Part shown: positions 2,974-55,709 of the stretch, in pieces | How positions within the stretch are numbered: the first letter of the stretch is position 1 | Layout of the letters: each line of letters begins with the position of its first letter | Assembly: GCA_044892525.1 (NCBI GenBank) | Contig: CM097885.1 | Coordinates: 17,672,001 to 17,736,000, forward strand | Origin: Schmidtea polychroa | Lineage: Eukaryota | Direction: 5' to 3' | DNA: 64,000 bases | Translations under genes and position numbers: made by a program | Notes under the pieces: generated by a model | The model's database searches: none | What the model was told of the DNA's origin: nothing | Seen by the model: the letters and a program-made list of their open reading frames with translations, nothing else

Positions 2974-3531
2974 TTATTGTTCATGTTTAAATTCAAGATC
3001 ACGAATAATAATTTTATTTTTGAATAATAACAATTTGTCCATGTCAATACCATAAGATAATGCCATCATTGAACAACCTAATGGTCGCATCTCAGTTGAT
3101 TGGGTAGAAAGCTGCTTAATATCCGCAATAGAACGACATATTATGTCGCAAGGCATTTCATATCCATGTTTATATCTAAATCGACCTGCTTCCATTTGTG
3201 CACGACATACTTGAGATCGATAATCAGGGATCATACCAGTCATAACACCTCCAGTACTTTCAGTAATATTAAACAATTTTGTAGCTGAACTTTTCTCAAT
3301 CATTTTATCTGGAACCTTTCTTTGTGTAGCTACTACATCAGAATTATTGCATCGAATACCCACGGAAATCCGTCCACCAAATAAATTTAATATTAGTTGG
3401 CCAAAAACACCATTAAAGTTATCAGGATCTCTTGGGATCATAAAAATGGAACCATCAGTTTCGTTGGTAGTATTTCCAATTTCCATTGAGTTATCAGATT
3501 CATAAATTTCTTCATTAAAAGCAGCCATCAT
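2974..3531 (-). CDS. PSMA6-like: Proteasome subunit alpha type-6-like fragment inside the 3' LTR
   Basis: TQRKVPDKM, LFNITESTGGVMTGM, FRYKHGYEMP and TEMRPLGCSM match PSMA6 (TQKKVPDKL, LFKITENIGCVMTGM, WKYKYGYEIP, AEMRPLGCCM). Homologous part ~3019-3378, native N- and C-termini missing, first ATG at 3531. Confidence 0.85.
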   Translation of the reverse strand: MMAAFNEEIYESDNSMEIGNTTNETDGSIFMIPRDPDNFNGVFGQLILNLFGGRISVGIRCNNSDVVATQRKVPDKMIEKSSATKLFNITESTGGVMTGMIPDYRSQVCRAQMEAGRFRYKHGYEMPCDIICRSIADIKQLSTQSTEMRPLGCSMMALSYGIDMDKLLLFKNKIIIRDLEFKHEQ

Positions 3532-3819
3532 TAACAACTCTTTCCTTAAATCGAAACATAACTCATCCAATACAATCGATCGATAAAAATCTAAATCTAA
3601 AAATTAAATTACAACCAAACTAATTAATAAATATTGCCATACTTCTTGCTCGCGTCTGTGTGCGCACACAGCCAAAAACAAAGAAAAGAAAAGCGCACAC
3701 AGACGCGACACACCAACAACCCAACCCAAAAAATGACATTGCTCGCGTCTGTGTGCTCACACAAACCTATCACACAATACAACGCGCACACAGACGCGCA
3801 TTGAGCTCATAATTCACCA
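2978..3819 (-). repeat. 3' LTR (842 bp)
   Basis: TGGTGAATT...CATGAACA. Differs from the 5' LTR by a few substitutions and a ~93-bp indel near 3670-3760. Confidence 0.92.
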
Positions 3820-3833
3820 TCCTCCCCCCCCTT
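3820..3833 (-). promoter_or_regulatory. Polypurine tract
   Basis: AAGGGGGGGGAGGA directly abuts the TG of the 3' LTR. Confidence 0.9.
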
Positions 3834-3919
3834 GACACCTTAGTGTCAATCTCAAATCCCCATCAGCTTCTCCTTCTTCTTTTATACTCAAACATAATTT
3901 GAAGATACATTCCCGTGTC

Positions 3920-4077
3920 AGTTTATCCCTTTTCCCCTTCATTTCTTCCACTTCCCTCGCCATTTTATCCCTTTTCCCCTTCATTTTCTGCATTTCCCTC
4001 GCCATTTTATCCCTTCTCCCCTCCATTTTCTGCATTTTCCTCGCCATTTTATCCCTTTCCCCCTTCATTTCCTGCAT
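3920..4077. repeat. 42-bp tandem repeat (~3.5 copies)
   Basis: Repeating GCCATTTTATCCCTTT..CCCTTCATTT unit, giving a 14-aa periodicity (RDKMAREMQKMKGK) on the minus strand. Confidence 0.85.
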
Positions 4078-4157
4078 TATGGCTCAATCTCCAATAACCC
4101 TCACACACCCATCTTTGTATTATATAAGCCGCCGCACCACGCACCTTTTTTGAAAGA

Positions 4158-4715
4158 TCAAAAAAAAAAAATTCTCCACCCACCATCGCTATACTCGGCC
4201 AAGCAGCTGTCCCTGTTCAGTTTGATTAGGTGTAATCTCTCCATTATTCTTTCTCCCTTTTTCGCCAATTCCATATTCCACACTTTTCCCTGTTGCATTT
4301 CATTTAGTGACCAGTTTTCACTTAATGTTTTTATAAGCATCCTACAAAGTCGTTCTTTGATTGCTTCGTGTTTCGATTCCCCAATCGACACCTTGTCTTT
4401 CATGTGCATCTTTTGAGGCGTGCAAGCGAGTTCCAGTGACCCTTGTTGTTTTAAACTGTTCGATGATTCGTTCAATTTTTCCAAAACTTCTTTGGCCCCT
4501 TGATCATTATCACGTACAGTTTCCCATGATTTCCCATATACCATACTGGTCTCCTTGTTTTGCCTCTCCCCTTTGGAGTCTTCTGCCCCTTTTACATTAT
4601 CACGTTCTTCTTTTAGTCGATTAACTTCCCCTTCGTCGACCTGAATATCATTAACCGCCGCCTCGGGCGTTAAATCCTCTGATGTTGATTTGTCTTTTTC
4701 CCAATTACTCATCAC
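4158..4715 (-). CDS. Charged hypothetical ORF downstream of gag
   Basis: 185-aa E/K-rich ORF with no recognisable motif. Confidence 0.35.
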   Translation of the reverse strand: MMSNWEKDKSTSEDLTPEAAVNDIQVDEGEVNRLKEERDNVKGAEDSKGERQNKETSMVYGKSWETVRDNDQGAKEVLEKLNESSNSLKQQGSLELACTPQKMHMKDKVSIGESKHEAIKERLCRMLIKTLSENWSLNEMQQGKVWNMELAKKGERIMERLHLIKLNRDSCLAEYSDGGWRIFFF

Positions 4716-4846
4716 TTACGTTGTCTTCGGTTCCACAATTTTATCGTCGGATAATTTTATGATCTCACCAGCCCGGCAAGCCTCATCTTGCTTTTCCCCT
4801 GTATTCATTTTTCCTTGAACATTTTGTGTGATTGTCATAACGTTAA

Positions 4847-6571
4847 CTAATTCGTTAGTTCTTCCAGAATTGAATATTTGCCATCTAAATGACTCTGAGC
4901 TCCTTGCTCTTCATTAGATGCCTTACTCCTGTGGAGTGGCGTGTCCTCAATTCCTCGAGATGCCCGTAACTCGTCATTGAACATTTCAGTTACCGCAAAA
5001 TAACTCTGAACCGTCCTCATTGATGCGTTTTCATTTAATAATTCGTTGTGTCTTTGCTTACATCCGGTAACCTTGCAGAAAGATTCTTTACGGCATTCCT
5101 TGGCCATGTGATTTCTTTTGAAGCAATTCCTGCACAGTTTCATTTCTTCGATGACTCTCTTCCTTTCTGAAATTGTGAGTTGCTTAAACTTGTCACATTG
5201 GTCTAGGTAATGTTGACCACCACATTCTACACACTCTGATCTATAGCCGTTAGAGTTATTCACCTGTATAACCGTTCCACTTTTAACTCTGCCATTTGGT
5301 TGCCCCGTAAAATGCGTCCGACCTCCTGGATTGAAGCTTTCTCTTTCTCTAGACACACCTTCTACTCTTGGCCCATCATAAGTCCTGGTGCTTGATTGAG
5401 TCCCATACACGACCTCGTTAGTGGACCTTAGGATCTCCGCTTCTTGTTGTATCCATCTTCTCAAATCCTCTATCGTCTCCCGCAATTCCTTTTCTATTTT
5501 CTCTTTCTTCCATTTATACACAAGATCCGTTGTTAACTTGCTCAAACACTTTTGAAAAAGATATCCAGTCTTTAACTCGGTTTCTTTCCCAGTGGATTTA
5601 AATCGCACGGTGACTGTTTCTAATAATCCAACAAATAAGTCTAGATCCTTCAAATCTCCTTCTCGAATTGGCCTGAACTTGTCCATCTCCTCTAACATTG
5701 ATAAATATATCCTTTCATCCCCACCATATATCCTATCCAACTTCTCTTTTGCCATTTGATAAGCCTCTGCCGAATATTCTAGATTTTCAATTAACTTTAA
5801 TGGCTCTCCGTGAAGGTACTTGTGCAGGTGAAACATCTTTTCAACCTCATCACCTTCCGCTTCGTCAACACACGCCGTAAAAGCTGCTTTGCATGGTTCG
5901 TACTCTTTCATCTTGCCTTCAAAAACAGGGATTGTAATTTTCTGTAGACTTTCCAGTTTTCTTTTATGCACGGAATTATTCTTCTTGAAGGTATCATCAT
6001 TCACATTTTCCTTCTCTTCCATAACAGATTGATTTGCTTTTCTTTCCATCAATGCCCCAATCATTTGATGTTTTTCCTCGATCTCTTGCAGGTCTTTATC
6101 TAAGATTGCAGTGATGTCCAATCTTTGCAATTTTTTACTGATCGTTCTCAGATCCCCTAATTCTTCATCTAGACTCTCCTTTTGATCTTCATATTCCGCC
6201 AACCATTCGCTAACATCCTTCCCATTTATATCATTGAGAATCTTGTTTCTCAATCTCGTTAATTTTCCTTTTTTCATTCTCTTTTTCCACAGTCCTTCTT
6301 CTAAAATCTCTTCGTCATTGCCCCCGCACAGCCTGAGTGACAAATGAAGTGTCGAACCTACTTGTATCCTATAATCGTTCAATCTTCTTCTATTTTCTAA
6401 TTGCTTTCCTGCGTGTACTAACATTTGATAATTTACCGGAATTCCTTCTTTGTCCTGGATTTTTCCTTTTACCTTTTCAATTGTGTCGTTCCATTCAACA
6501 TCAAGAGTAATTGTCTTACCAGTAAGAGTTTTGACAAATATTTGACTTTCCCATCGCAACTCAAAACCCAT
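4847..6571 (-). CDS. Ubiquitin-Gag fusion (ubiquitin-like domain + BEL/Pao-type Gag with zinc knuckles)
   Basis: [14 protein letters not shown]...[12 protein letters not shown] (6544-6320). Then a coiled coil, a DUF1759-like region (KITIPVFEG...[14 protein letters not shown]...[10 protein letters not shown]) and Cys/His motifs [27 protein letters not shown] and [14 protein letters not shown]. First ATG at 6571. Confidence 0.9.
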
Positions 6572-6845
6572 TACTCCGCTCGCCCTCACCCTTGACTCAT
6601 CTCTGTTCTTTACCCTGATCCCCTGGCTTCCCCCTTTAAAAAAGTGCTGGGGCCATAGCAGCACTTTCCCACGCTCGGTAGGGAAGGGAGGATGATTAAT
6701 TTTACAAAAATAAAGTTCAAATAAATGAAAATAAAATTTACATCACCCTTGATGATTAATTTTACAAAAATAAAATTCGAATAAATGAAAATAAAATTTA
6801 CATCACCCTTGATCAGCCGGGCTGTCTCCACTGAAACATTGGTGC

Positions 6846-7433
6846 CTAGCCCCCTGAAGGGAACCATGCTCTGCTACCATGTTCATGTTTAAATTCAAGA
6901 TCACGAATAATAATTTTATTTTTGAATAATAACAATTTGTCCATGTCAATACCATAAGATAATGCCATCATTGAACAACCTAATGGTCGCATCTCAGTTG
7001 ATTGGGTAGAAAGCTGCTTAATATCCGCAATAGAACGACATATTATGTCGCAAGGCATTTCATATCCATGTTTATATCTAAATCGACCTGCTTCCATTTG
7101 TGCACGACATACTTGAGATCGATAATCAGGGATCATACCAGTCATAACACCTCCAGTACTTTCAGTAATATTAAACAATCTTGTAGCTGAACTCTTCTCA
7201 ATCATTTTATCTGGAACCTTTCTTTGTGTAGCTACTACATCAGAATTATTGCATCGAATACCCACGGAAATCCGTCCACCAAATAAATTTAATATTAGTT
7301 GGCCAAAAACACCATTAAAGTTATCAGGATCTCTTGGGATCATAAAAATGGAACCATCAGTTTCGTTGGTAGTATTTCCAATTTCCATTGAGTTATCAGA
7401 TTCATAAATTTCTTCATTAAAAGCAGCCATCAT
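6846..7433 (-). CDS. PSMA6-like: Proteasome subunit alpha type-6-like fragment inside the 5' LTR
   Basis: Second copy (one K/R difference). Reads through the LTR end and PBS to a stop at 6846. Confidence 0.85.
   Translation of the reverse strand: MMAAFNEEIYESDNSMEIGNTTNETDGSIFMIPRDPDNFNGVFGQLILNLFGGRISVGIRCNNSDVVATQRKVPDKMIEKSSATRLFNITESTGGVMTGMIPDYRSQVCRAQMEAGRFRYKHGYEMPCDIICRSIADIKQLSTQSTEMRPLGCSMMALSYGIDMDKLLLFKNKIIIRDLEFKHEHGSRAWFPSGG
6862..6879 (-). promoter_or_regulatory. Primer binding site, initiator tRNA-Met
   Basis: TGGTAGCAGAGCATGGTT immediately after the 5' LTR, complementary to the animal tRNAi-Met 3' end (...CUCUGCUACCA). Confidence 0.88.
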
Positions 7434-7628
7434 TAACAACTCTTTCCTTAAATCGAAACATAACTCATCCAATACAATCGATCGATAAAAATCTAAATCT
7501 AAAAATTAAATTACAACCAAACTAATTAATAAATATTGCCATACTTCTTGCTCGCGTCTGTGTGCGCACACAAACCCATCACACAATACAACGCGCACAC
7601 AAACGCGCATTGAGCTCATAATTCACCA
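6880..7628 (-). repeat. 5' LTR (749 bp)
   Basis: Direct repeat of 2978-3819 with TG...CA ends. Confidence 0.92.
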
Positions 7629-7775
<147 letters not shown>

Positions 7776-8179: not shown

Positions 8180-8516
8180 TTACTTAAACACATTCAAAAT
8201 CTCCGTGGAACGGGCAACTTGATCATTTATTTTTGGATTTAAATATCTAATCAACAATGCCTCACAAGTTACTCGTTCCCAATAATTACTTAAACCTTTT
8301 GAAATAATTTTAAAATCAGAGATACCTATTTTTTTACTGACACATTTCCTAACATGATTACTAATATTAGTCAATCCTTTTGGTCGACAGTGTTCAAGAA
8401 CTCGGGTGCAGAGATGACGGGCAGTCTCTCCAATGTATGTGGCATTACACCCATTACATGAAAATTGATACACGAGCTCAGAACACAAACCAATTGGCGT
8501 TGGACATTTACTAGTA
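8180..8516 (-). pseudogene. Penelope-like element 3' fragment, GIY-YIG endonuclease
   Basis: LVYQFSCNGCNATYIGETARHLCTRVLEH...SNH...EALLIRYLNPKIN is the PLE-type GIY-YIG with CxxC. Confidence 0.88.
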
Positions 8517-8743
8517 TGCGTACGTCTGAATCTGAGGTACCTATTGATCCTGAGGAAAGTAGTATGTTAAATTCGGAAAGTGACAAGAATCGATCCAATC
8601 GCATGGAGCCGAAATATGTGTTAGTATTGCCTTATTCTGAGGGTTTCAGAGAATTTAAACATAAAATTCTCAAATATGTAGACAAGGATCAATTCAGGAT
8701 TGTTTCCACTTCTTGCAAAGTTAGCAGTATGTTTACTAGTAAA
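8517..8743 (+). pseudogene. Inverted upstream piece of the same Penelope ORF (RT-EN linker)
   Basis: KYVLVLPYSEGF...VSSMFTSK joins in frame to TSKCPTPIGLCSELVYQF once the segment is re-inverted. Confidence 0.7.
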
Positions 8744-9545: not shown

Positions 9546-10010
9546 TTAATTAAGTGATAATAAAAAATCTAAAAATTCTTTTCCTTCAATTATTGATTTA
9601 ATTTCAGATATGATATTATCAACTATACATTTGTAATCAATATTTTTTATTCCAAGAATTACTATCTTACCGCTAGCTAATATATTTACACACATAGGGT
9701 TATATTTTATATATCTCAAAGCTGGAAATAATTCTGGTTCGTAAAAGCATGGTATTAATTTAGCCAATTTATTTAAATTACAAGAAAAACCTATATCGGA
9801 AGTTACGGTTATCGATTGTATTTCTAAATCATAAACATTATATTCACTAGCTTTGATTATTTCCTTACACCCCATAATTCTATATTTACCAGTTTTGAAA
9901 TATATTATTGGATATTTTTTACTTCTATTGATAAGTTGTTGCGGTTTCCCCATTGGAAATACCATTTTTGATACATCAGCTTTTGCCCTGTAATTTATAT
10001 TTGAAAGCAT
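9546..10010 (-). CDS. TBP-like: TATA-binding-protein-like protein of Polinton A
   Basis: Two TBP repeats: IYFKTGKYRIMGCK, then IQSITVTSDIGFSCNLNKL...YEPELFPALRY...VNILASGKIVILGIK (compare TBP YEPELFPGLIY...LIFVSGKVVLTGAK). Confidence 0.85.
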   Translation of the reverse strand: MLSNINYRAKADVSKMVFPMGKPQQLINRSKKYPIIYFKTGKYRIMGCKEIIKASEYNVYDLEIQSITVTSDIGFSCNLNKLAKLIPCFYEPELFPALRYIKYNPMCVNILASGKIVILGIKNIDYKCIVDNIISEIKSIIEGKEFLDFLLSLN

Positions 10011-10118
10011 TTTAATGAAATAATTATAAAAACTCTGTTATATATATATAGTTATTTTAAAACGGAGTTCATTTAAATTATCAATATAAACAATAATTAT
10101 ATAGTTTAAATTTAAAAA

Positions 10119-10757
10119 ATGGAATTACGAAATGATGCAGTATACCAAATCGTTGGTCCAAGTGGTAGCGGAAAAACATTATTTGTTTGTAAAGTACTAA
10201 AATCAAATTTGTTCAAAACAAAATTCAACAATATTTATTGGCATAGGGGCGCCGATGAAGAACACGAATTGGCGCAATCAAGTCTCTGTCAGTTGAAAAA
10301 CATGAAAATAGTAAAGGGTTATGATAAAAACTGGTCAAGTCGTTTGAAAAAAGATGATGTCATCATTATCGGTGATTTGTATCAAGAAGCCAATAAAGAA
10401 ACGGATTTTAATAATTTATTCACAAAAATCAGCATACATGTTGGAGTAACAGTTATTTTCATAACACAAAATCTATTTCATCAAGGTGGTGCACATCGAA
10501 CACGTAATTCAAATGTACAATATTTAGTTATTTTCAAGAATCCTAGAGATGCAACTGTCATTGATTTTCTTGGACGACAAACATACCCTAATAACCGTAA
10601 TTTTCTTATCAATGCATTTCAAGATGCTACGAAAATACCTCATGGGTATATATTTTTCGATTTCACACAACAATGTCCTGATGATATACGGGTAAAAACA
10701 GATATTTTCAACCCAAAAGGTGCCATGGTTTATAAACAAAGTTCAAAACAAATTTGA
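10119..10757 (+). CDS. Polinton DNA-packaging ATPase (A32/FtsK-HerA type)
   Basis: Walker A GPSGSGKT, degenerate Walker B (IIIGDL), FITQNLF and YLVIFKNPRD motifs. Confidence 0.92.
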   Translation: MELRNDAVYQIVGPSGSGKTLFVCKVLKSNLFKTKFNNIYWHRGADEEHELAQSSLCQLKNMKIVKGYDKNWSSRLKKDDVIIIGDLYQEANKETDFNNLFTKISIHVGVTVIFITQNLFHQGGAHRTRNSNVQYLVIFKNPRDATVIDFLGRQTYPNNRNFLINAFQDATKIPHGYIFFDFTQQCPDDIRVKTDIFNPKGAMVYKQSSKQI

Positions 10758-10770
10758 AAACATATAAATA

Positions 10771-11265
10771 ATGTTTTCAAAAACAAGGATATCGAGTAAA
10801 AAACAACCAAAGGTTCCACCAACAACTAGTTATACTCCATCGAAAGAACTTATTACAGAAAATTTTGCTGCAATGAATCTTATTTCGAAAAATCCTAAAC
10901 CTAAACCTAAAAGTAAAACCACTAAGAAAGTAAAAGTTGTTAAAAATCATCGGAGTTTCCCGTTTTTCAATACATTGTTAAAGGCAACAAGTATGAAAAG
11001 AAACAGTATTTTGCAATCATTTCAAAATTATGTTGTCGATGATTTACTCGATATTATACTTAAAGTAGTCAAAGGCAAGATTAAAATCAGTAAATCTAAA
11101 AAGCAATTATTGAGTAAACATAGGAAACCTTTGCTATCATTAGTAAATAATAAAAATCGTCAACAAATGAGAAAAATTATATATAAACAACAAAGGGGAT
11201 TTATCGGTGCATTGATACCTTTAGCAATAGCATTATTAGGTGGAATAATAGGAAGTCAATCATAA
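10771..11265 (+). CDS. Basic Polinton virion/core protein
   Basis: K-rich, with a C-terminal hydrophobic RGFIGALIPLAIALLGG, positioned between ATPase and integrase. Confidence 0.65.
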   Translation: MFSKTRISSKKQPKVPPTTSYTPSKELITENFAAMNLISKNPKPKPKSKTTKKVKVVKNHRSFPFFNTLLKATSMKRNSILQSFQNYVVDDLLDIILKVVKGKIKISKSKKQLLSKHRKPLLSLVNNKNRQQMRKIIYKQQRGFIGALIPLAIALLGGIIGSQS

Positions 11266-11326
11266 ACAATGGGTGTTAATCCTTCATTACCAGACATTAA
11301 ATTTAATATTAAATCTTCTTACTGTA

Positions 11327-12465
<1,139 letters not shown>

Positions 12466-13234
12466 ATTTATATCCTTTTTTTCCAAGTAATAGTTGCCCG
12501 CTTATTCATCCGGATAATCAAGCCAGTAAATTCATGGTCAATCTCCAGAATCCGATTTCTTTAAATGGTGACTGAGAAGTTGCACTGCAAGATTTTACAT
12601 TCGTGTACAATACATTCCCATTTTATAGTCAATGTAAGATTGATTTCAAAAGGAATGCTATGAAAACATGTAGTGGTATCTTTATTATCAGTAATTATGA
12701 TAAAACATATCATATTCCGAATCAAATATTAGATCCGCATTGCTCTATGTTTTACAAGGATGGATTAAATATCAGTTGTGATTTTAAACCATTTACAATA
12801 ACATTCGAAACTATTGAAGATGCCAAACGATTGGGTTGCAATAAGTTGAAAAATGAAGTTATGGAAACAGAATACTTATTACGCTTTGATCTATTTGAAG
12901 CAAAGTGTAATGAAAGAAGAAATCAAAATATCAGTGTCGTATAATAATGAAGTTGAAGAATCATTCACCTTTGCTGACGAATTATATATTGATAAACTTG
13001 ATGTGTTACTTAAATATTTAAAGTACAATTGTTCACACATATTTAAAAGTTTGGACATTGTGAAAGATTTAAATGTAACTTAAAGTTTGAATGATGACAT
13101 TTGTGAGGTTACATTTGATAAAAATTTGACAAATACACTTGGATTAGAGAAGCAGCAATATCGGGAAAAATCGGCTGGTATACGTAAACCAAGAATACTT
13201 GAACATCATCAACAAATGTTCATATATACTAATA

Positions 13235-14270
13235 CAGTAGATTTCGCTTATAGAGAACTTGCTTAAAGAGAACAAAATCGGTTAAAGAGAATTTTTTGGT
13301 TTAAAAACGGCATTTACCCCAATTTTTCAGTGTAAATGTTCTCTTTAACCGATGATCGGTTAAAGAGAACAATTTTTTATTTTGGGTTTATTTTTTTCGA
13401 AATACAGTTTATTTTAGACAGTAAACATATAATTTAATTATTTTTGTTTTAAAAAGGTAATTGATTAAATGGTAACCTGATTAAAGGTTATTTGATTAAT
13501 TGAAAATATTATTTTACTTAAAAATTTTAGGCCATAATGAAATCAAGTTCTAGGACAATTCTAACACTCAAACAGAAATTTGAAATCATAGCACTTTTTG
13601 AGAAAGGAGAAAGCCAAGCATCATTGGCCAGAAAATATAAAATATCACCTTCATCAATATCAAACATTTGTCACAAGAAAAGGGAAAAAATACTTGAGGC
13701 CTACAGTTCCAGGCCTTCGTCAACCAAGAAACTGAAACAATCTTTTCATGATGATTTAGATATTCAGTTAAGGCATTGGTATTTGCTGCAACGATCCAAA
13801 AAGATTCCCATTAACAGTGTATTACTTATTGAAAAAGCTGATCAAATTGCCAAATACCTAAAGATTCAAGATTTTACTTGCACAATGAGTTGGATCCAAC
13901 GTTTTAAAACTCGGCATTCTCTTGTTTTCGGATCTATTTCTGGAGAAGCTGGTGATGTAAATAATGAGTTGGTGGCGTCGTGGCTTAAAAATGAGTGGCC
14001 GGAAATTAGGAAAGGTTATGGTAACAAAGATATTTTTAACTGGCCATTTACAAGAAAGTTTAATAGCAATTGAATCAGATTTGGAGAAGATTTTACTCAA
14101 GAAAAAAACCAGGCAACGGAAAATAACTGAGTTTATTTTCAAAAAATAAATGTGTTATGTAGTTAGTAAAATTTTTTGAATATTTTTAAAATTATCCTTA
14201 TTAAAAAGTATCGGTTATAGAGAACATTTTTTCAAGTCCAAAAAATGTTCTCTTTAAGCGGTATCTACTG
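13235..14270 (+). mobile_element. Tigger/pogo-type DNA transposon, internally deleted
   Basis: TIRs CAGTAGATTTCGCTTATAGAGAAC / GTTCTCTTTAAGCGGTATCTACTG with a TA duplication. Confidence 0.92.
13537..14073 (+). pseudogene. Tigger transposase N-terminus (CENP-B-type HTH domains), DDE core deleted
   Basis: LTLKQKFEII...LARKYKISPSSISNI and WIQRFKTRHSL...SGEA. Truncated at DIFN and joined to a C-terminal tail. Confidence 0.88.
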
Positions 14271-22959: not shown

Positions 22960-23382
22960 TTGAAATATCAAAACTTTTGTAATAGTCAATATCATAATGA
23001 CTGCGATGATATAATGGAAAGATATTATAGTCATAAATATAACGGTGTCACCTACATCCTATGCCCTAAATGTGAGGTTATTGAAGTTATAACGTATAAG
23101 GAATTTTTTAATAAGCATAGACTCCATCTCCAACAATTTAAACCTTCTAAGAAATCTCTTTTCTATAGCTTATATAAATCGTTTGTTAACAATAATAATA
23201 TCAACAACAATAATAATACTAACAACACCAATAATAATAATGATATAAACGAAATAAATAATCTAAAAGATCAAGTAAATAAATTAAATGATCAAATGAA
23301 TAATCTAATTAATATGAATAAAAGAAAAAATAATGAAAAAATAAATTTAATACCAATTAAAAATCTAAAGTTATTGATGTAA
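22960..23382 (+). CDS. Hypothetical ORF with a CxxC/H motif, possibly detached 5' part of pPolB
   Basis: LCPKC...NKHRLH followed by an N-rich tract, directly upstream of pPolB, non-ATG start. Confidence 0.35.
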   Translation: MKYQNFCNSQYHNDCDDIMERYYSHKYNGVTYILCPKCEVIEVITYKEFFNKHRLHLQQFKPSKKSLFYSLYKSFVNNNNINNNNNTNNTNNNNDINEINNLKDQVNKLNDQMNNLINMNKRKNNEKINLIPIKNLKLLM

Positions 23383-23564
23383 TCACAATAAGTGATGATG
23401 ATGTAATAATCAACATAAGTGATGATGAAATTGTTAATAATAATAGTAGTAGTAATATTTATTATAATAATGGTATTAATAATAATTATAATAATATTAA
23501 TCAAATAGGTTATGGTGTCGTAGATGTCACCAGTGATTTAAATAATAATCATATTATATTAAAA

Positions 23565-25257
23565 ATGGACGTTTCGTCTTTAGATTTAAAAACGGTCTCT
23601 GTACCAGACATTTTAATAAATAAATTAAATTTATATGTAAATAAATTAAAATCATGTAAAATTCAATTTTGTCTAAAGGTGGAATTTATAAAAGATGATG
23701 AGTTACAATCTTTTGTAATCTCGAATTCCGCCCGAGTTTGGAGATATACATTCATTGACGAAGGTATTGCTCGTTTAAATGAAAAAATAATTAAAATTAA
23801 TGAGAAAGGTAGTAATTGGACTATCAATAAAATCGAATACATAAGCTTTGTTCTGACTAAATTTGCTGAAATAAGTCGTTTAAGTGGTAGAAGCTTTATT
23901 GAAACCCCAAAATCTTTAAGAAACTTAAGCTGTCTCATTAATGCAGTTAATAATGACCAATTCTGCTTTTTGTATAGTTTCTTGTCAATTATTAAATATG
24001 ACAGTATAAATAGGCAATATAGAAATCGCCCTAATTCCTACAATCTTTCTGATATTAAATTTGATTCTAATGATATGCCGATGAAACTATCAAATATAAG
24101 TAAATTTGAACAACAAAATCCAGGTTATAGTATTAATGTTCTTACTTACAACGAAAAGGCTTTGATAGACATTTCCGATGAAGATGCAGTTATGAAACAT
24201 CCCTTTATTGATATAATATACAGGAGTAAGATAGTAGGAGCCATACCTATCAATTTATTATTAATTGAAAAGAATGATAATTATCATTATCTTGGAATCA
24301 CAGACCTAAATAGATTCCTTAATTGTAGGAATAGTTCAATCACTCCTGTTAGGATTTGTAGTCAGTGGTGCCCTAGGTGTTTAAACGGGTTTAGGAATGA
24401 TGACGCTTTTAATAGACATAAGGGTCTTTGTGATAAAAATCAGCTTGGTACTACCTTGTACACATTGCCTAAAAATAAATATTTAGAATTTACTGACTGG
24501 AGTAAAACAGTTACTCCTCCGTTTGTTATTTACGCCGAATTTGAGGCTATCTTACCTAAAGACACTCTCTATTTTCAACGTCATCTACCTATTTCTGCCG
24601 GTATACTTTTTATTAATAATTTTACGGGAGTAAAAATTTATAAGTCGTTTACCGGTTTAGATTGTGTCGATCAATTTCTTACTGAAATTGAAATGATAGG
24701 GAAATATATTGTAACTCCTTATTATTATAAAAATTATCAAAAGAAAATGATAATTACAGATGAACAACAATTAATGTTTGAAAACAGTACATCCTGTTAT
24801 TTGTGCAATAAGCCTTTAGTTAGTCCAGTTAGGGACCATGATCATTTTACCGGTCTATATCTTAGTGCCGCTTGTACAACTTGTAATCTGTCGAGGCAAA
24901 TTAGACATATCCTTCCTGTAGTATTTCATAATTTAAAGGGTTATGATCTGCATCATATCTTGAAATTTGGCCTTTCAAAATACCATTCATGGAATATTAG
25001 TTGTATTCCTTTAACCAGCGATAAATTCCTTAGTCTTTTTGCTAGGATTGACTCATTAACTGTTAAATTTATAGACTCATCAATTTGTCAGCGAGTCTTT
25101 GAATAATGCTGTCAAAACTTCATCATCTTTACCCTTGACCGAATCAGAATTTCAGGGTACAATAATAACTGCAAAGGGAATTTTTCCTTATGATGCCGCA
25201 ACTTCATTAGAGGTTTTGCATAACACTCATCAGTTACCTCCTATTTGGAAAGATGTG
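23565..25257 (+). pseudogene. Protein-primed family B DNA polymerase of A, 5' part
   Basis: GSNW, INAVNNDQFCFLYS, FVIYAEFEA, EndoVII-like VRDHDHFTG...CN, VVFHNLKGYD, FIDS, KGIFPY. Frameshift near 25080, cut by element B. Confidence 0.92.
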
Positions 25258-25565
25258 AGTAGTGTGTATCTATCCCTAACGACCACAAGCCTCCCAGCTG
25301 TTTTCATGTTTTATACCTATTTTTTTCCCGTTTTATACCTATTTTTCCCCCATAAACGTAAAAAAAAAACACTTAAAACCTTAAAAACCTATATCTTTTA
25401 ATTTCTTTATTCCGAAGACATTTTGCTTTCAAAATAAAAACTTAAAAAACAACAAAAATATTAAAAAAACAACACAAAATGTTAATAAAACAGGGAAAAA
25501 AATACTGATAAAACTATGAAAAACGTTTGTCGGCTTGCGGTCGTTAGGGATAGATACACACTACT
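25258..25565. repeat. Left TIR of B, itself bounded by a 34-bp inverted repeat
   Basis: AGTAGTGTGTATCTATCCCTAACGACCACAAGCC ... GGCTTGCGGTCGTTAGGGATAGATACACACTACT. Confidence 0.92.
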
Positions 25566-25567
25566 TG

Positions 25568-25718
25568 CAGGTCGCCAGTTTATCAAGTCGCCAGTTTATC
25601 AAGTCGCCAGTTTATCAAGTCGATAGTTTGTCAAGTCAATGATGCAATCGCTGCGGTCTTGGCAAGTCGACAGCTTGGTAAGTCGACAGCTTGGCAGGTC
25701 GATAGCTTGGCAAGCTGC
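25568..25718. repeat. Subterminal 16-bp tandem repeats
   Basis: GTCGCCAGTTTATCAA x3, then GTCGA(C/T)AG(C/T)TTG variants. Confidence 0.85.
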
Positions 25719-25875
25719 TAGAATATAAATATAAAAAAAATAAAAAAAAAATAAAAATAAAAATAAAAAAATAAAAAAAATAAAAATAAAAAAAAATAAA
25801 AATAAAAATAAAAATAAATATATAAAAATTTAAAATTTAAAAACAACGTATCCAGTAAAAAAATTTTTTCTAAAA

Positions 25876-28800
25876 ATGAATTGTAATATTTGCAATAAAG
25901 TTTTTAAAAATAAAACAGGATTAATTTCTCACTATAAATCGAAAGCTCACTTACTAAAAGAAAATAATCTTAATGACACAAATTCAAAAGTTTGTACTAA
26001 ATGTAAAGGAAGATTTCTACATTCTGGATATAATAAACATTTTGAAAATTGTATCGGGAAAAATAGAGAAATATTTACATGTCCTCATTGTAACTTTTCA
26101 ACAAAACTAAATTTCTATTATTTAAGACATTTAAAAGAATGTAAAAATAAAAAACAAAATTCTGACGTTGAAGAATGTCATTCAGAAGGAGAACCTGATC
26201 ATGTTGAAAGAGAAAAATACAACTGGGATGATTTTAATCATATAGATGAATTTCAATTAAAAATTAATGGACCTGCAACCCCTGGAGAATATATAAGGAG
26301 AAATAAAAAAAATATTAAAAATTCTTTCACTGAAGCTTTAAAAAATTATAAACCAACAAGGTATAATGTTATAAAATATAAAATTACAATCAAAGCAAAA
26401 TATTGGAGAGGACCAGAAGAAAAGACAACTCCTTTAGATGTTGAAATTGGAATACCTTTTAAATATTTATTTTCAACTAGAGGATTTAATAAAAGCATCA
26501 AAGAAATAATTCAAGCAGTAGAAGCAAAACAAGAAGAGGTTGAAAATGAATTAGGAGATTCAAACTTAGTATTCAACTCTTTCCAAACTTTAGTGATTGA
26601 TTATTGGAGAGGATTACCACCTAATCCTAAATCTTATATTCAAACACCCTTTAGATCTAGGGTTGTTATAAATGTACAGAATAAGGATAACAAATGTTTC
26701 ATGTGGTCAATACTTGCATATTTACATCCTCAAGCTGAAAACCCTCAAAGAGTTTCAAAATACAAACAATATGAAAATGAATTAATATTTCCCAAGGGAT
26801 TCACACACCCAATGAAACTAGAAGACATTCCAGAATTTGAAAAACTAAATAATCTTAAACTTAATATTTATGAACATGTTAAAGGATGGGGACATGGAAG
26901 GAAAGATATTATTCCAATTTATATTTCTGATAGTGATAGCACGAGGGAGATATATCTTTTAATCTTGGAAGAAGGAAATAATCAACATTATGTTTTAATA
27001 AAAGACTTTCAAGCTTTTACATCACCAGAGAATCCAACTAGTGGAGGAGGAACATGTAAAAGATGTCTTCATTATTCAACAACTAAAAACTCTATGATTA
27101 AACATGCAAGATTTTGTGAAAAAGATGATCCAGCTTTAATTAGAATGCCTACAGATCCCAGGATGTATTTTAAAAACTTTACAAATTTATTACAAACATT
27201 AGGAGTTGTCTATGGAGACTTTGAATCTATAAATCGTAAACAAGATATAATTATGCAATATTTAAAAATAATAGAAAAATATAAACTCATGGATGAATGG
27301 AAAGCCTCTAAACAGAAGATGAAACCAGAGAGGATGAAAGCCTTTCTAAGAAAAAGAAATAAACCTAATAGTGTTAAAAAAACTAAACAATTACCATCTG
27401 CTTATAAATTATTATTTAAAAGTAATTATAGAATCTAGAGAATATGCATTTCAAGGAACTTCAGAAGATGTTTTAAATCATTTTACTAAAAGTATAAATG
27501 ATCTAGAACATGAAATATTTAAAATATTAAAAACAAAGTATCCTCAAAAAATTTCTAATCAACAACAACAAGAATATGAAAATACTTCCAACTGTTGGAT
27601 GTGTAAACAAGACATTCTTCCTGATGATAAAGTTATAGATCACGATCATTTAAAAAAGGAAAATAATTATCGAGGAGCAGCCCATAGAAATTGTAATCTT
27701 AATTGTCATACTCCTAAATTTGTACCAGTTATATTTCATAATCTTTTTGGTTATGACATACATCTATTTATTAAACATTTAGCAGAAAATGCTAAAAACT
27801 CTTTCAAAGTTATAGGACTTACAAAGGAAAAATATAAATCAGTTGAATATGGAAAATTAAAATTTATAGACTCGTTAAACTTTCTCAAATGTCTCTAGAT
27901 GGAATAGCTAAAACAATGAAAGCAGAAAATTTTAAAATCACTCGAGAATTCTTGGAAAAAAATAATATCCCCCAGAAGAATATCCTACATGCTTAGCAAA
28001 AGGAATATATCCCTATGACTATGTTGATTCATTTGAAAAATATAATGAAACAAAATTACCAGAGAAAGAAGATTTCTATTCCCAACTTCAAAAATCTCAT
28101 ATTACAAATCAAGAATATTCTCGAGCAAATAAAATGTGGGATCTTTTCAACTGTAAAACTTTAGGAGAATATACAAGTATGTACTTATCCCTAGATGTTT
28201 ATATTCTAGCAGATTGCTTTGAAGAATTTACAAAGTCTTTTGTTCTTAAACCTTATAATTATATAACAGCTCCTTCTTTAGCTTGGGATACTATGTTATA
28301 TACCATTTGGACTTCAGATCTTCCAGAATCTGATAAAATTATAGATCTTTTAACCGACCAAGATATGTTTAATCAAATTAAAACAAACATTAGAGGAGGA
28401 GTATCTTCAGTAATGGGGAATAGAGAAATAAAAGCTAGAAATGCAATAACTACTAGCCGAAGAATCTCTAAACACCCTGATCCATATATAAAACTTAACA
28501 ATGAGGAACTAAAAGAAGTATTAGAAGGAATGAAAAATCCTCTATTTATACTTTATATAGATGCAACAGCTTTATATTCAGGAATTATGACTCAATATTT
28601 ACCAATGAGTGACTTTCAAGAAATATACTCCTCTGAAGGACTTCCAGAAATAGAATGCCCTCCAGAAGAATATTTAAAGACTCTTATGAATGAAATACTT
28701 TCAACTCCTAAAGATTCTCCAATAGGATACTTTGTAGAATGTGACCTCGACTACCCAGATGATATAAAATCAGGAACAAGACATTTCCCTTTAGCTCCTA

Positions 28801-30200
28801 TAAGAAGAAAGATTGATATCAACGAACTTTCACTCTGGCAAATCTCACAAGATAAACCTCCAACAATGAAACTTCTTTGTGATCAAACAGATCGAACTTA
28901 TTATCTTTGTCACTATAGACTCCTCCAGTTTTATCTTTCACAAGGAATGATATTAAAAAAAGTTCATAGTGTCATAAGATTTAAACAAGCAGCATTCATG
29001 AAGACTTTCATCGAGGAGAACATTCGTTGTCGAAACATTGCAAAAAGAGAAGGTAACCTTTTAAAAGACAATAATTATAAACTTTTAAACAATTCAGTCT
29101 TTGGGAAGACAATGGAGAATGTTGATAAATATACTCATATTGAACTCCTAACAAATACCCCGAAAGATATAGCCCGTTATAATCGTATGCTAGGAAAGCC
29201 TACATTTAAAAATGCAGAAGTATTTTCTGAAAATCTTACTGCAGTAGAACTACAGAATTTTGAGAAAACATATAATAAACCAATATTTATCGGCTTTGCA
29301 ATTTTAGAACTTTCAAAATTACAAATGTATGAAACATATTATAACATCTTACAACCTATATATGGATCGAATATAGCAATGCATGCAATGGATACAGATT
29401 CAATGTTTTTAACAATAAGAACTCACGATTTACAAAGTGATATCTCTGAAAATCCTATACTTTCAAATTTAATAAATTCATCTGGAGAATTATTTTCGTT
29501 TAAAGATGAAAAACCTTTTACTCCTATAGAAAATGGAATATTTATTCGTGCTAAACAATATTCATATGAAACATTTACAAATCCTAAATTTGAAGAACAT
29601 TCATTTATATTTAAAACCCCAGAAACAGAAGAAAGCATTACACATAGATATCCTATATTCCCTAAAGGACCTGACGGACAGGGAGAAAAACCTGTAAAGG
29701 ATAACAGATGTAAAGGAATTCAGAGATGTGTAGCAAAGAATCTTTCTCATCAAGATTATATAGATACATTGAATCCAAATCATAAAGATAAAATTGATGA
29801 AATACATCAACTTAAAAGTGAAAAGCATGATATTTACTTGATAGAATCCCAAAAAGTATCATTATCAAATTATGATGACAAAAGATTCATACTAAGTGAT
29901 TTAAAGACAACTCTTCCTATAGGAAATAATTTAATACCGATAATAAAAAATCTTGATAGATTGAATCAGTTATATGGTACAAAGATTACTGATCTTGATA
30001 TTTATAATGTTGAAATCATTTATCCTGAGAGAATTGAGAAACCTTTATATTCTCAAGTTTTTAATCCTATATGTTTAGAACTTAAATATTTTAATACTGA
30101 TCCTGAATATATAAAAGGTCTAAGTGATAAAGAATTTAAAGATCATAAAGAGGTTCTAAAAACTAATTTCGAAAAGTTAACATCAGATTCTATCAAATGA
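25876..30200 (+). pseudogene. Protein-primed family B DNA polymerase of B (frameshifted)
   Basis: N-terminal C2H2 fingers, INVQNKDNKCFMWS, VYGDFES, EndoVII-like DHDH...YRGAAHRNCN, FHNLFGYD, YIDATALY, KLLNNSVFGKT, MDTDS, CKGI, YDDKR. Frame breaks near 27430 and 27895-27980. Confidence 0.95.
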
Positions 30201-30274
30201 TTTTTTTCTTTTAAAAATGTCAACAATTAATTTAAGAGTGACAACATCAACCTTTTGAAGGGCAATAAATTTTT

Positions 30275-30895
30275 TTATGTATGATTCTTTAGCCACTTCT
30301 TTCGTTTAATTTTTTTAGAATATTCATTACTTATAACATTAGCACTTTTTAATCTTATAACCTCATTTTTAATATCTTGTATTATTTGATTTGATTTCAT
30401 TATTTCTTCGTCTGTTAGGATTCCATCTTCCAAAGCTTTTAATTGAAATAAAAATAATTTAGAGATTCCTAATTCTATTGATAAACAAACTTCTCTATAT
30501 AAACTTTTCTTTTTAGAAGTATAAGATAATGAAACTATTTCAGTTAAGAAACCATCAGCTACAGAAATACTTCCAAGTATTACAGGTGCAAGAGTAACAA
30601 CTGGTAAAGTTATGGGTAAAATAACTGTTAATATTGCAGATGCAAATCCTAAATAATAACCTATAACTTTTAAAACTGTATTCCCTTTATTCCATCTATT
30701 TTTAATTTTTTTATAATGCTTTAATAAATCTTGTAAATGTAAGGTTTCTGATTTAAATTCTTTTACTCTCATAATTTCAAGTTCTGTGGGAGCCGAGGCC
30801 TTGGAACCTTTGTGACCTTCGGAATAATATCTTGATGACAATTCTGGGTAAATTTTTTCTTCTCTTACTTCTTCCATCTTTTGGACTTTGTCCAT
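30275..30895 (-). CDS. Polinton putative membrane protein
   Basis: Central hydrophobic hairpin and KALEDGILTDEE motif. Conserved in E (61775-62386). Confidence 0.7.
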   Translation of the reverse strand: MDKVQKMEEVREEKIYPELSSRYYSEGHKGSKASAPTELEIMRVKEFKSETLHLQDLLKHYKKIKNRWNKGNTVLKVIGYYLGFASAILTVILPITLPVVTLAPVILGSISVADGFLTEIVSLSYTSKKKSLYREVCLSIELGISKLFLFQLKALEDGILTDEEIMKSNQIIQDIKNEVIRLKSANVISNEYSKKIKRKKWLKNHT

Positions 30896-30903
30896 TTTAA
30901 TAA

Positions 30904-31908
30904 TTAAAAAAATAAGACTTTATTCTTCTGAGCACCATCTGGTACCAATACTCGGATATCAAAAGAAACTCTTGTTGAGAGAATATCTTTATACAATTCT
31001 CTCAATGCTTTACGAACTTCATCAACATCAACCTTTTTTTCATAAAATATTAAATCTATATATTGTACAAGTGTGCTTTTAAAAATAATATTCTTACTTT
31101 TAACTTTATGTAGTCCATGTGAATGAGTATTAACATACCAATCTCCGTGTGGTAAATCATAACTAGTCATTATAACATCACCCTTTTCAAGCTTACTATT
31201 ATAATCACATTTCACAAACCATTTCATTCTTTCATTATCATCATCAAACAAAAAGAAATAAGGATCAATAATCTTTACAACCATAAAAACACCCCATTCT
31301 TTACTGTTTGTTGTTATTAAACTTGGTTCTATAAAATGTTTATATGTATGGGGTAATAATGTTTTATTCTGTTCTAATTCAGCAGCTCTTTTTCTAATAC
31401 TATGTGTGGTGTTAATGTGTGTTCCATGAGACTTTAAATTTGAAATTCTTTTATTAAATGATGTAATCATCTCATTTATTATATTATATATTGTATTAAA
31501 TTTAGTATTCATAATTTGTTTATCTTTAGAATTTAATATGCTAGTATTTAACTTTACAACTTGTTCAGTTAACAGACTTTGTAACTTGTCAAATTTATCA
31601 TTAAATCGTTGTTCGATATTATTAAGCTTTGATTCCATTGAATCAATTTTTGTTGTTAATGAACTTTCAATTCTTGTTGTTGTTAAATCAGTATATTTTT
31701 TAACACCATCTACATATTTCTTATTAACTGCATCGAGATTATCAACTGGAAAAGATAAATCTTTTATCTTGTGTGCATTCATACTTAAATCACTCTTCAT
31801 TGAATCACCTCTTTCATTAATATATTTATTTTCTGTTAAAGTTAATATGTCTTCTGTATCAACCCCAATTGTTCCTCCACCTTTATTACATGGAATATAA
31901 GAACTCAT
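30904..31908 (-). CDS. Putative fibre/spike-like protein
   Basis: GDSMKSDLSMNAHKIKDL..P....DAVNKKYVD (tail-fibre/trimeric-adhesin-like motif), then a coiled coil and a globular C-terminus. Adjacent to penton and conserved in E. Confidence 0.6.
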   Translation of the reverse strand: MSSYIPCNKGGGTIGVDTEDILTLTENKYINERGDSMKSDLSMNAHKIKDLSFPVDNLDAVNKKYVDGVKKYTDLTTTRIESSLTTKIDSMESKLNNIEQRFNDKFDKLQSLLTEQVVKLNTSILNSKDKQIMNTKFNTIYNIINEMITSFNKRISNLKSHGTHINTTHSIRKRAAELEQNKTLLPHTYKHFIEPSLITTNSKEWGVFMVVKIIDPYFFLFDDDNERMKWFVKCDYNSKLEKGDVIMTSYDLPHGDWYVNTHSHGLHKVKSKNIIFKSTLVQYIDLIFYEKKVDVDEVRKALRELYKDILSTRVSFDIRVLVPDGAQKNKVLFF

Positions 31909-32012
31909 TTATTAGGGGATTAAAATACTTAAGAATTCCTCTCCCCCTTTGTACACTTCGTTAGTCCTTCTCCGCCTTCTCCCTTTTAGTCCTTCTCCCC
32001 CTTGTGACTTCC

Positions 32013-32768
32013 TCAGACCTGTTTCAAATGTAAATACATTGAAATCTCTTCTCCATTAAAATCAATCAATTCTCCTTCTTGATTAAGAATTTTAAAATTA
32101 ATATCCATTATATATTTTCTACATAAAGGTAAATAATTTGGAGGATTCATTCTTTCAACTATTTTATATCCCATAGGAACTGTGTTTGAGGGAAAGGAAT
32201 ATAAAACATTTGTTTGTTTACCATTATTATAAGAACCAGTTATACAATCGCAATGAATATTTATTGTGTTTGTATTTATTATTTTTATAATATTTTCTGA
32301 TGTAACTACAGGTGTGATATAATGGTTTCGTGTAAATCCTAAAATTGTTCTAAAGAAACTATTATTTTGAAAATGAATTCCTATATTCTCTAAAGTCATT
32401 ATACATTTTGAAGTTGGTAAATCCATTTTAATTTTAATGACTCCATTTGTTTTTTTAGAAAGTATATTATTTAAATCTTTTATCTCATAAGCTCCGGGTT
32501 CGATTGTTATTATAATCTTATCTGTAGATTTTGGGCTTATATAATAAAATATGTTATTATCTTTAGTTATATTAAAAATAGTATTATAAGCACAAAACCA
32601 TAATAGTCCTAATTCATAATTTAAATTTTGATCTAATTTAATTTAATCTTGAAAGTTTATAGTAAAGTCTGATTCTTTTGAATTTATAGATAAAGTTCTT
32701 GAATATTTATCTGACATTATGTTTACCATTTTTTTTAAATTATCTTCCGGAAGGTTGCGAAGCTCCAT
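32013..32768 (-). pseudogene. Polinton B minor capsid protein (penton) with premature stop
   Basis: Collinear with intact 59967-60731, but FQDSIK has become FQD*IK at ~32644. INIHCDCITGSY...LIDFNGEEI motifs. Confidence 0.88.
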
Positions 32769-32770
32769 TT

Positions 32771-33202
32771 TCATAGTATAGATTTTAAATCATTATAAAT
32801 TTCTTGGATTAAGGAAGTGAAACCTTCTCCTTTGGATTTATTCAATCTATACAAAACATATAAGCTTAAAATACCACATATTTTAGTATTATTAGGTTGA
32901 ACTTGTAAAGAATTAAAAGTGTAGTCCGAGAGATAGTCTTCAACTTCTTTAGTGGGTTTAATCCCAAAAGAATCAAAGTATATAGATTTATTATATATAC
33001 AAACCCAATGAGATCCTTTTTCATTTGAATTTTGATAATTTATAATGATATTCTTTGGAGTGTCTTCTTTCAGACTCGACAATTCATCATTCATTAATAT
33101 TTTTATTTTTAAATTTAAATAATCTGCATAATCTTTTAAATCAAAATTTGTTTTTGTATTTATTCCAAATGTTTTTAAAAAATCTAATATTGAAGGAGTC
33201 AT
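32771..33202 (-). CDS. Adenain-like cysteine protease
   Basis: GSHWVC, YFDSFG and QVQ...CG motifs. Confidence 0.92.
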   Translation of the reverse strand: MTPSILDFLKTFGINTKTNFDLKDYADYLNLKIKILMNDELSSLKEDTPKNIIINYQNSNEKGSHWVCIYNKSIYFDSFGIKPTKEVEDYLSDYTFNSLQVQPNNTKICGILSLYVLYRLNKSKGEGFTSLIQEIYNDLKSIL

Positions 33203-33224
33203 TTTATATTTTATAACTTTGTAT

Positions 33225-34022
33225 TTATAACTTCGTATACTTATTAAATTTATCTTTTGAAATTATTCCTTGTTTTAATAATTCTTTAGAAATCTTTAAA
33301 ATATCAGAATCTAAATTATTATGTCCTGCTTTTTTAGCTGCTAATAGTTTTCTTAATTCAATAAAAAGATTGATTGGGTTTATCTCCTTACCCTTTCCCT
33401 GGCCCTGACCCTGGCCCTCTCCTTCTGTGACAATATAACCCCTTTCATTTTTATTTAAATATTTCTTTAAATCTTGAATATGTTTTGCTTTAGCACTACC
33501 ATGTACTAATTCTATTAAATTTAAATATTTTTTAATTTCTAGAAGATCAACATTCTCTGAGGGATATCCACAAACTAATCCATAAAAATCATCTGTAAAT
33601 TCAAAATCTAGGTGTTTAGTATTATAAACATTTTGTGAATGAATACGTGATTTATTTTCTGAATTTAAATATAACAGAAAGTCATGTTTATTAATTGTTA
33701 TTATTTGATATCCTTCAACATTAATATTAAATGTAGGTTTAATTGTTTTACTTAAACTCACATTAATTTTAGGATCAAGTATAAGAGGTTTTATATTTAA
33801 ATCTCCCAACCATGGTAATTCTTTTAAATCTTGTTTATCTTCCAACTCTTTAAATTTTAAAACTTCTAACTCTTTTATGGCTTTAATTGTTGGTCCTTGT
33901 TGTTGTTGGATTACCTCATTTAATATTATAGATTCAGCGTGTTGAGTTGTATCTTTTTTATTATATTTATCTTGTTCTGATTGTAATTTTTTTAAAAGTG
34001 CTAATCTTTCTTCATATACCAT
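33225..34022 (-). CDS. Conserved Polinton protein of unknown function
   Basis: C-terminal LRKLLAAKKAGHN...ELLKQGII motif typical of Polinton ORFs. Homologue in E. Confidence 0.7.
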   Translation of the reverse strand: MVYEERLALLKKLQSEQDKYNKKDTTQHAESIILNEVIQQQQGPTIKAIKELEVLKFKELEDKQDLKELPWLGDLNIKPLILDPKINVSLSKTIKPTFNINVEGYQIITINKHDFLLYLNSENKSRIHSQNVYNTKHLDFEFTDDFYGLVCGYPSENVDLLEIKKYLNLIELVHGSAKAKHIQDLKKYLNKNERGYIVTEGEGQGQGQGKGKEINPINLFIELRKLLAAKKAGHNNLDSDILKISKELLKQGIISKDKFNKYTKL

Positions 34023-34044
34023 TTTAATGGTATTAAAAATGGTA

Positions 34045-34647: not shown

Positions 34648-34662
34648 TTTATAATAAATAAA

Positions 34663-35442: not shown

Positions 35443-35453
35443 GGCTTGTCGAC

Positions 35454-36842: not shown

Positions 36843-36871
36843 TTTAAAAGTTTTTTTATGGGGGAATCTAC

Positions 36872-38167: not shown

Positions 38168-38203
38168 TTATATAATAAAAATTTAAAAAATGATAAAAAT
38201 CCG

Positions 38204-38286
38204 AACTCCGATAGCGCAGTGGGCTAGACTGGCACAGTGGTTCAAATGGATAGCGGTTCAAATCCTAACTACGGTTAGTTTTTTTT
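38204..38286 (+). ncRNA. Putative Pol III tRNA-like small RNA, B copy 1
   Basis: A box TAGCGCAGTGG (38212), B box GGTTCAAATCC (38255), T8 terminator. Confidence 0.6.
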
Positions 38287-39408: not shown

Positions 39409-39414
39409 GATGTG

Positions 39415-55692: not shown

Positions 55693-55709
55693 TATTTTAA
55701 CATTTTAAA

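Follow-up and report, generated by a model that had tools for sequence, protein, structure and literature searches.

A ubiquitin domain ahead of Gag and host mRNA pieces in the LTRs of a planarian BEL/Pao retrotransposon lineage

Introduction

Why does a retrotransposon carry a ubiquitin domain directly in front of its Gag protein? The question is raised by a minus-strand ORF in the window, that is, the whole 64,000-nucleotide stretch of Schmidtea polychroa DNA analysed here (contig CM097885.1, positions 17,672,001 to 17,736,000). A sequence-only reading of the locus had proposed that a protease-less element uses host deubiquitinases (DUBs) to mature its Gag or to destabilise it through an exposed Asn, or else that the domain is an uncleaved decoy. 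The reason for the domain likely lies upstream in the same frame, in an LTR-encoded, host-derived and variable leader which that reading had missed. Our preferred reading, to which we give a probability of roughly 70%, is that translation would start in the LTR and that host DUBs would release a uniform Gag from this changing leader.

Results

A pol-less BEL/Pao element

The element lies on the minus strand of the window and has the following features, given from its 5' end after the ORF:

4847-6742 (-): ORF matching PF00240 ubiquitin (E 1.3e-21) and DUF1759 Gag (E 2.2e-11)
7629..7633 and 2973-2977 (no strand): TSD ATTAT, inside an (ATT)n tract
6880..7628 (-): 5' LTR, TG...CA, 749 nt, 97.9% identical to the 3' LTR over 730 nt
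7551..7612 (-): inverted-repeat motif, conserved at the start of this and of sibling LTRs and probably promoter-like
6846..7433 (-): LTR-encoded reading frame from ATG 7433, which in this copy, its leader being out of frame, stops at 6846
7275..7421 (-): cargo 1, a piece also found in a longer cargo with a PF14369 zinc ribbon (E 3e-4, below cut-off)
6945..7280 (-): cargo 2, residues 35-144 of proteasome alpha-6, numbered by the solved subunit (E 5e-35)
6915..6920 (-): AATAAA, 41 nt before the LTR end, the cargo lying upstream of this likely poly(A) site
6862..6879 (-): PBS, complementary to the 3' end of host tRNA-Met with one mismatch in this copy
6572..6861 (-): leader from PBS to ubiquitin, which differs in length from copy to copy and contains a conserved GGGCCC-type motif
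6569..6571 (-): internal ATG, eight codons before ubiquitin Q2
6320..6544 (-): ubiquitin domain Q2-G76, ending LRLCGG
5014..6319 (-): BEL/Pao Gag with helical N-terminus, DUF1759 (about 5501-5923) and three Cys/His knuckles
3833..5013 (-): non-pol segment where PR-RT-RH-IN would be, common to a non-autonomous subfamily
3820..3832 (-): polypurine tract, by sequence
2978..3819 (-): 3' LTR, 842 nt, with the same cargo as the 5' LTR

The DUF1759 Gag with three Cys/His knuckles, the TG...CA LTRs, the tRNA PBS, the polypurine tract and the 5-bp TSD identify the element, as far as its sequence tells, as a member of the BEL/Pao LTR retrotransposons. The PBS is complementary to the 3' end of tRNA-Met genes that are arrayed in the genome, and translated in the Gag frame it reads G-S-R-A-W in the window copy. 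One tandem tRNA-Met array with a 454-bp period starts at G000:C1:79326093 (L300), and 1,228 pattern matches were counted genome-wide.

Compared with the pol-bearing copy L036, the window copy is 95.7% identical up to position 5014 and then continues into the non-pol segment; protease and RT are absent from it. It is a pol-less derivative of the lineage and out of frame between LTR and ubiquitin, and its ubiquitin-Gag would need ATG 6571 or else helper copies. Tandem repeats of 21 nt (3910-4077) in the non-pol segment encode a coiled-coil-like peptide and are partly present in derivatives of family B (described below). A 100% identical element together with its flanks lies 56 kb before the window (L065, G000:C1:17614000-17623999), as a segmental duplication or an assembly repeat.

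Other mobile DNA surrounds the element. Polinton/Maverick-type genes (polB, integrase, A32 ATPase, double jelly-roll capsid) occupy 9546-13000, 23361-40651 and 54391-63992, including a pair of copies in inverted orientation (about 29,300-39,000 and 53,100-64,000) that agree mostly at 92-99%. A TBP-like ORF (PF00352, E 7.9e-13) at 9546-10037 (-) lies beside a Polinton-type ATPase and integrase. A GIY-YIG-like fragment at 8180-8566 (-), below cut-off, is possibly a Penelope-type remnant, and a CENP-B/Tc5-type transposase N-terminal fragment is present at 13531-14073 (+).

The LTRs carry pieces of host mRNA

A genome search for the element gave 492 candidates, 40 of which were scored, and 35 loci were fetched at 10 kb. 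The sibling LTRs begin with the same inverted-repeat motif, after which different host pieces follow: EAP30/SNF8, Ras-family/Rab, dual-specificity phosphatase, TCP-1 chaperonin, LIM, cofilin-like and two unnamed ones. Pfam matches in the cargo were Ras, DSPc, Cpn60, LIM, EAP30 and Proteasome; the two unnamed cargos received no name from Pfam and their Atlas matches fell below recognition level. Cargo 1 of the window LTRs we take to be an RNF115/126-like, RING-ligase-like piece. None of the genome candidates proved to be the host gene for alpha-6 or for the RING ligase.

The SNF8 piece matches the host gene in a single exon at 95.5% identity, and four copies differ from the host by 3-4 synonymous and 2-4 non-synonymous changes, which are small counts; a fifth pair fell out of register. 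The unnamed cargo of L047 corresponds to four exons of the host locus L241 at 94-100% identity and is devoid of the three GT-AG introns between them; therefore this cargo, the one in which intron absence was tested, came from spliced RNA. Of 116 copies, 106 have AATAAA at 26-59 nt from the end of the LTR, after the cargo, so that the cargo is likely situated in R. The cargo retains the host gene's own frame and differs between subfamilies. Host pieces also stand in frame between PBS and ubiquitin, namely a DEAD-box helicase (L163:2026-2496) and HSP90 (P0241). These comparisons indicate that the LTRs are changing mosaics of host mRNA pieces.

A first look at the whole genome gave 1,376 proteasome-like and 1,240 ubiquitin-like candidates. 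Many alpha-6 fragments lie behind the LTR motif with no PBS nearby (L132-L137, L265-L294) and are probably solo LTRs or derivatives.

Family B and distant relatives

All 20 loci picked from 150 listed ubiquitin matches belong to a second family, family B, which compared with family A of the window copy has a Gag about 35% identical, the same PBS, overlapping cargo and two ubiquitin units, the second ending L[AT]GG in 19 of the 20. In L155 two stretches, namely the whole first unit and codons 1-33 of the second, were copied recently (dS 0.02 and 0.11) from adjacent host polyubiquitin repeats, and the rest of the second unit is old (L155:2449-2901, oriented). The divergence pattern indicates that family B refreshed its ubiquitin from two adjacent host repeats and kept its own old C-terminal half.

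Among 120 listed relatives of the RT region, 7 contain PF00240 and 2 more start with an L-x-GG remnant. A Gag profile search added 5 ubiquitin carriers among 149 new matches, plus one remnant, and the JGI contig L138 holds one further ubiquitin lineage. Families A and B, the RT relatives, the Gag-profile matches and L138 make up the 18 lineages compared below. The translated PBS (GSRA) stands in frame upstream in six of them (P0124, P0126, P0127, P0164, P0241 and L138), and kinesin and Sec23/24, TRAF and HSP90 pieces precede ubiquitin in four distant members, most of these distant relatives being known from gene-called proteins, with cargo that may lie in their LTRs. P0123 has cargo and no GSRAW match. 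DNA of distant members came from three JGI contigs, drawn from 597 or more pattern matches; in L139 AATAAA, CA and PBS all lie in frame.

Several of the ubiquitin carriers, at 45-53% RT identity, have the same layout. A quick IQ-TREE of 33 RT rows placed the 11 carriers and 2 N-terminally incomplete rows on one side of a branch with SH-aLRT 99, the contrast being 20 chosen non-carriers, whereas an earlier 53-row RT tree, which included a long-branch row, needed 3 changes and gave no single ubiquitin branch. The rows of these trees are unnamed or carry species labels only, none of them being a named BEL/Pao superfamily reference. A homologue search with Gag alone found nothing, one with ubiquitin included was swamped by polyubiquitins, and the IMG/VR scan gave no relative among 104 pattern matches. 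In a Gypsy-type element (L299:16-2247, Gypsy-type pol nearby) a ubiquitin-like domain with a long N-terminal extension ends FGG before a DUF7041-like Gag, below cut-off.

One reading frame from the LTR into Gag

The family-A set comprised 111 loci, of which 107 keep the ubiquitin tail at the Gag junction and 98 have the PBS; copies were chosen by similarity or HMM score, with young intact ones over-represented and a few duplicates included. In most siblings the LTR frame runs on through the PBS into ubiquitin-Gag. The distance from PBS to GG is in frame in 73 of the 98 copies, in 17 lengths from 493 to 628 nt, and all 6 lengths found in at least 3 copies are in frame. Out of frame are 25 copies (19 of 36 distinct lengths), mostly singletons, the window copy among them. 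From PBS to GG 63 of the 73 in-frame copies are free of stops and 10 contain one. Before the PBS the family-A LTR frame is open for a median of 164 codons, and an opening of at least 100 codons is found in the Gag frame in 63 of the 84 copies with enough flank, compared with 1 of 168 for the other frames; in family B the same count is 16 of 19, with 0 of 38 in the two remaining frames.

The first open in-frame AUG lies a median of 168 nt past the LTR motif (65 copies; 5 had none in frame), preceded by a median of 3 out-of-frame AUGs and by none in only 3 of the 65 copies. Contigs of four runs, presumed to be RNA, cover parts of the element and give neither strand nor start nor level. A short way ahead of ubiquitin, families A and B and two distant contigs keep a palindromic GGGCC(C) motif (about 6640-6660 in the window; L138:783, L139:820, L155-L174), a candidate RNA dimerisation signal.

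One would argue that translation starts instead at the ATG just before ubiquitin, that the domain is a cut-off N-terminal tag for expression or folding, as in the ubiquitin-ribosomal fusions, and that the LTR frame is open simply because coding RNA was captured. This ATG is kept in 90 of the 98 family-A copies where the site was located, several distant members have Met at or near the ubiquitin start, and a captured coding sequence is naturally open in one frame. However, such a start leaves unexplained why different captures all fall into the Gag frame and why the PBS is in frame in distant elements. Met is missing at the ubiquitin start of P0123, P0164 and P0236 and of the first unit of family B. 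Furthermore, from the LTR motif to the internal ATG there are, at the median, 1,024 nt and 35 AUGs (70 copies), so a ribosome would have to pass about 35 AUGs if the cap is near that motif. We therefore regard this explanation as improbable. Against translation from the LTR we count the out-of-frame AUGs upstream, the retention of the internal ATG and the copies that are out of frame or interrupted by a stop.

The ubiquitin tail is what is conserved

The ubiquitin-like domain N-terminal to Gag is real, as the matches of the ORF to PF00240 and DUF1759 confirm, and alignment to solved ubiquitin bore out its reported details: the tail LRLCGG followed by Asn, K48 kept, and the changes K63V, I44V, F45H, V70S and R74C. 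To these we add R42M and a missing M1; F45H is peculiar to the window copy, 90 of 98 copies having Tyr. Residues Q2-G76 are about 72% identical to ubiquitin and their AlphaFold model superposes on it at about 1 A rmsd, hence sequence match and model agree on the ubiquitin beta-grasp fold. The near-invariant R42, I44, V70, R74 and K63 of a canonical conjugatable ubiquitin are all replaced.

The di-Gly, whose conservation across copies had been proposed as a check, is intact in 100 of the 107 family-A copies that retain the ubiquitin-Gag junction. L-x-G-G, with x being R, L, K, F, Q, Y, V, A or C, stands directly before Gag with no Pro after the GG in 18 of 18 diverged lineages, as a processing signal would require, and it is conserved while the remainder of the domain drifts. 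Only L73, G75 and G76 are invariant in a 10-row alignment, the binding-surface residues varying freely. Against 14 host ubiquitin units the element domain has dN of 0.22-0.25 with dS at least 1.9 or saturated, a dN/dS of about 0.12 or lower. Among 98 copies, variants common to at least 4 give pN/pS of 0.37, and rare variants give 1.25, as expected from decay after insertion; the same test on shared Gag variants (93 copies) gives 0.28. By these values the domain is under purifying selection, and the neutral decay that would have spoken against a function was not seen.

The domain might also stay attached to Gag and act as a ubiquitin-like decoy or adaptor, e.g., towards ESCRT, proteasome or p97 partners. 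The changes of R42, I44, V70 and R74 in family A would suit this role, and the accessible part of PMC6431247 describes Burro elements with internal Ubi2/SUMO-like domains. The conservation pattern fits it poorly, since what stays invariant is L73, G75 and G76 and not the surface through which partners would be bound, and family B has recently gained an intact LRLRGG repeat from host polyubiquitin. It is thus rather unlikely that the domain remains uncleaved.

The domain is not tied to the loss of the protease

A still slighter chance is left to the proposal that a protease-less element employs DUBs in place of its protease or exposes Asn in order to destabilise Gag through NTAN1. It describes the window copy well enough, which is without pol and has Asn after the GG, as do all 107 family-A junctions. 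RT is, however, retained in 24 of the 35 sibling loci fetched at 10 kb, and in both siblings scanned, L036 and L041 (single frames of 2,121 and 2,189 codons), ubiquitin, DUF1759, RT, Peptidase_A17, integrase and DUF5641 follow one another in one ORF. The absence of a protease thus holds for the window copy and not for the family. Pol-bearing siblings and distant complete elements, the autonomous relatives in which the domain was to be looked for, carry the same ubiquitin; therefore the domain is not tied to protease loss and, on this comparison, appears not to be a substitute for a lost protease.

The residue after the GG is Ser in 7, Met in 5, Gly in 4, Gln in 1 and Asn in 1 of the 18 lineages, so that Met, Ser or Gly occupies the position in 16 and no destabilising residue is conserved. 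Met, Ser and Gly are not Arg/N-degrons, while Gly and acetylation-dependent degrons exist. The proposed destabilisation through Asn consequently applies to a single lineage, and the ubiquitin-Gag junction is not a conserved N-degron. What survives of the earlier proposal is its core: a host DUB cut after the GG that matures Gag is still the best reading of the conserved L-x-G-G and of the selection on the domain, albeit separated from the rationale of protease loss.

Finally, that ubiquitin rides along as one more neutral capture, in a family that often takes up host RNA, polyubiquitin included, is hardly credible given the dN/dS and shared-variant pN/pS values above and the constancy of position and tail across a deep branch.

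Discussion

The reading that we prefer, LTR-started translation followed by a DUB cut, can be put as a sequence of steps. Transcription would start near the inverted-repeat motif of the LTR, and the long R region would pick up host mRNA by template switching onto co-packaged mRNA. Ribosomes would start at an AUG in the cargo, and DUBs would cut after the GG and free Gag from its leader. With such a ubiquitin spacer the element could put up with any leader that is in frame, and the turnover of the cargo would thereby be accounted for. The replacements R42M, I44V, V70S and R74C could weaken recognition by DUBs. The cargo may be useful, e.g., as cover from small-RNA silencing, or may only be tolerated.

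A bolder version is tentative. It could be that in an ancient lineage the LTR became a constantly replaced, translated cassette of host mRNA together with an evolved, host-cleaved ubiquitin spacer that leaves Gag untouched, that the turnover is adaptive since RNA ends dressed as essential housekeeping genes make small-RNA silencing costly to the host, and that a Gypsy family of this genome may have arrived independently at a similar ubiquitin-GG-Gag arrangement.

If the preferred reading is true, a retrotransposon relies on the ubiquitin machinery of its host to cut its polyprotein, and this cut would explain how constant exon-shuffling at the element's own 5' end is tolerated. Partial copies of housekeeping genes, hundreds of them, have been dispersed across the genome by this lineage, and they matter for gene annotation, RNAi specificity, read mapping and the control by small RNAs. 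Its many naturally diverged L-x-G-G tails are moreover candidate substrates with which the requirements of host DUBs for recognition could be explored.

Among known systems, yeast Ty1 has a GAG that starts in the LTR; its ORF crosses the LTR end and the tRNA-Met PBS, as the frame does here. The LTR stretch of Ty1 is, however, a fixed Gag sequence without host cargo and without ubiquitin.

Described BEL/Pao elements encode DUF1759 Gag, three knuckles, RT, Peptidase_A17, integrase and DUF5641 in one ORF (de la Chaux and Wagner, 2011, PMC3118150). Our lineage has this gene set, likewise in one ORF, together with TG...CA LTRs and a 5-bp TSD, and departs from the elements in the accessible part of that description by the ubiquitin before Gag, the ORF starting in the LTR and the host mRNA mosaics within it; the word ubiquitin is absent from PMC3118150. 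We found no description of ubiquitin-Gag or of translated LTR cargo in BEL/Pao in the literature, although Repbase Reports, subscription journals or supplements could hold one. In the accessible parts of PMC3118150, PMC6431247, PMC9289625 and PMC13524379 the only related feature is the internal Ubi2/SUMO-like motif of Burro. These giant planarian elements have a polyprotein with an internal ubiquitin/SUMO-like domain (PMC6431247); they differ in being Gypsy elements, in the internal position of the domain and in having no processing role or LTR cargo reported in that part of the source.

LTR-mediated retroposition by template switching yields spliced, partial and multi-gene host pieces within LTR elements (Tan et al., 2016, PMC5131818). 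The captures in the portion of that study available to us replace internal ORFs; the present ones are found within both LTRs and share the frame of an intact gag-pol, and they occur in pol-bearing copies too.

With regard to the cut itself, Fubi, which lacks Arg74, is cut by USP16/36 according to the accessible text of PMC10611586, so the loss of R74 is compatible with cleavage. FUBI-eS30 resembles our fusion as a diverged N-terminal ubiquitin-like domain without Arg74 that is cleaved at the di-Gly, and differs in being a host ribosomal gene with no variable leader. The closest viral likeness is given by the cytopathogenic pestiviruses (BVDV Osloss, CP Rit), where, in the accessible part of PMC8310069, a host-derived ubiquitin stands inside the polyprotein behind a foreign peptide, and its cleavage by cellular hydrolases generates an authentic N-terminus. 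There the ubiquitin is recent, near-identical to that of the host and found in occasional variants, and its cleavage is demonstrated; here it is an old, diverged and lineage-wide domain of a retrotransposon, for which the same cleavage is predicted.
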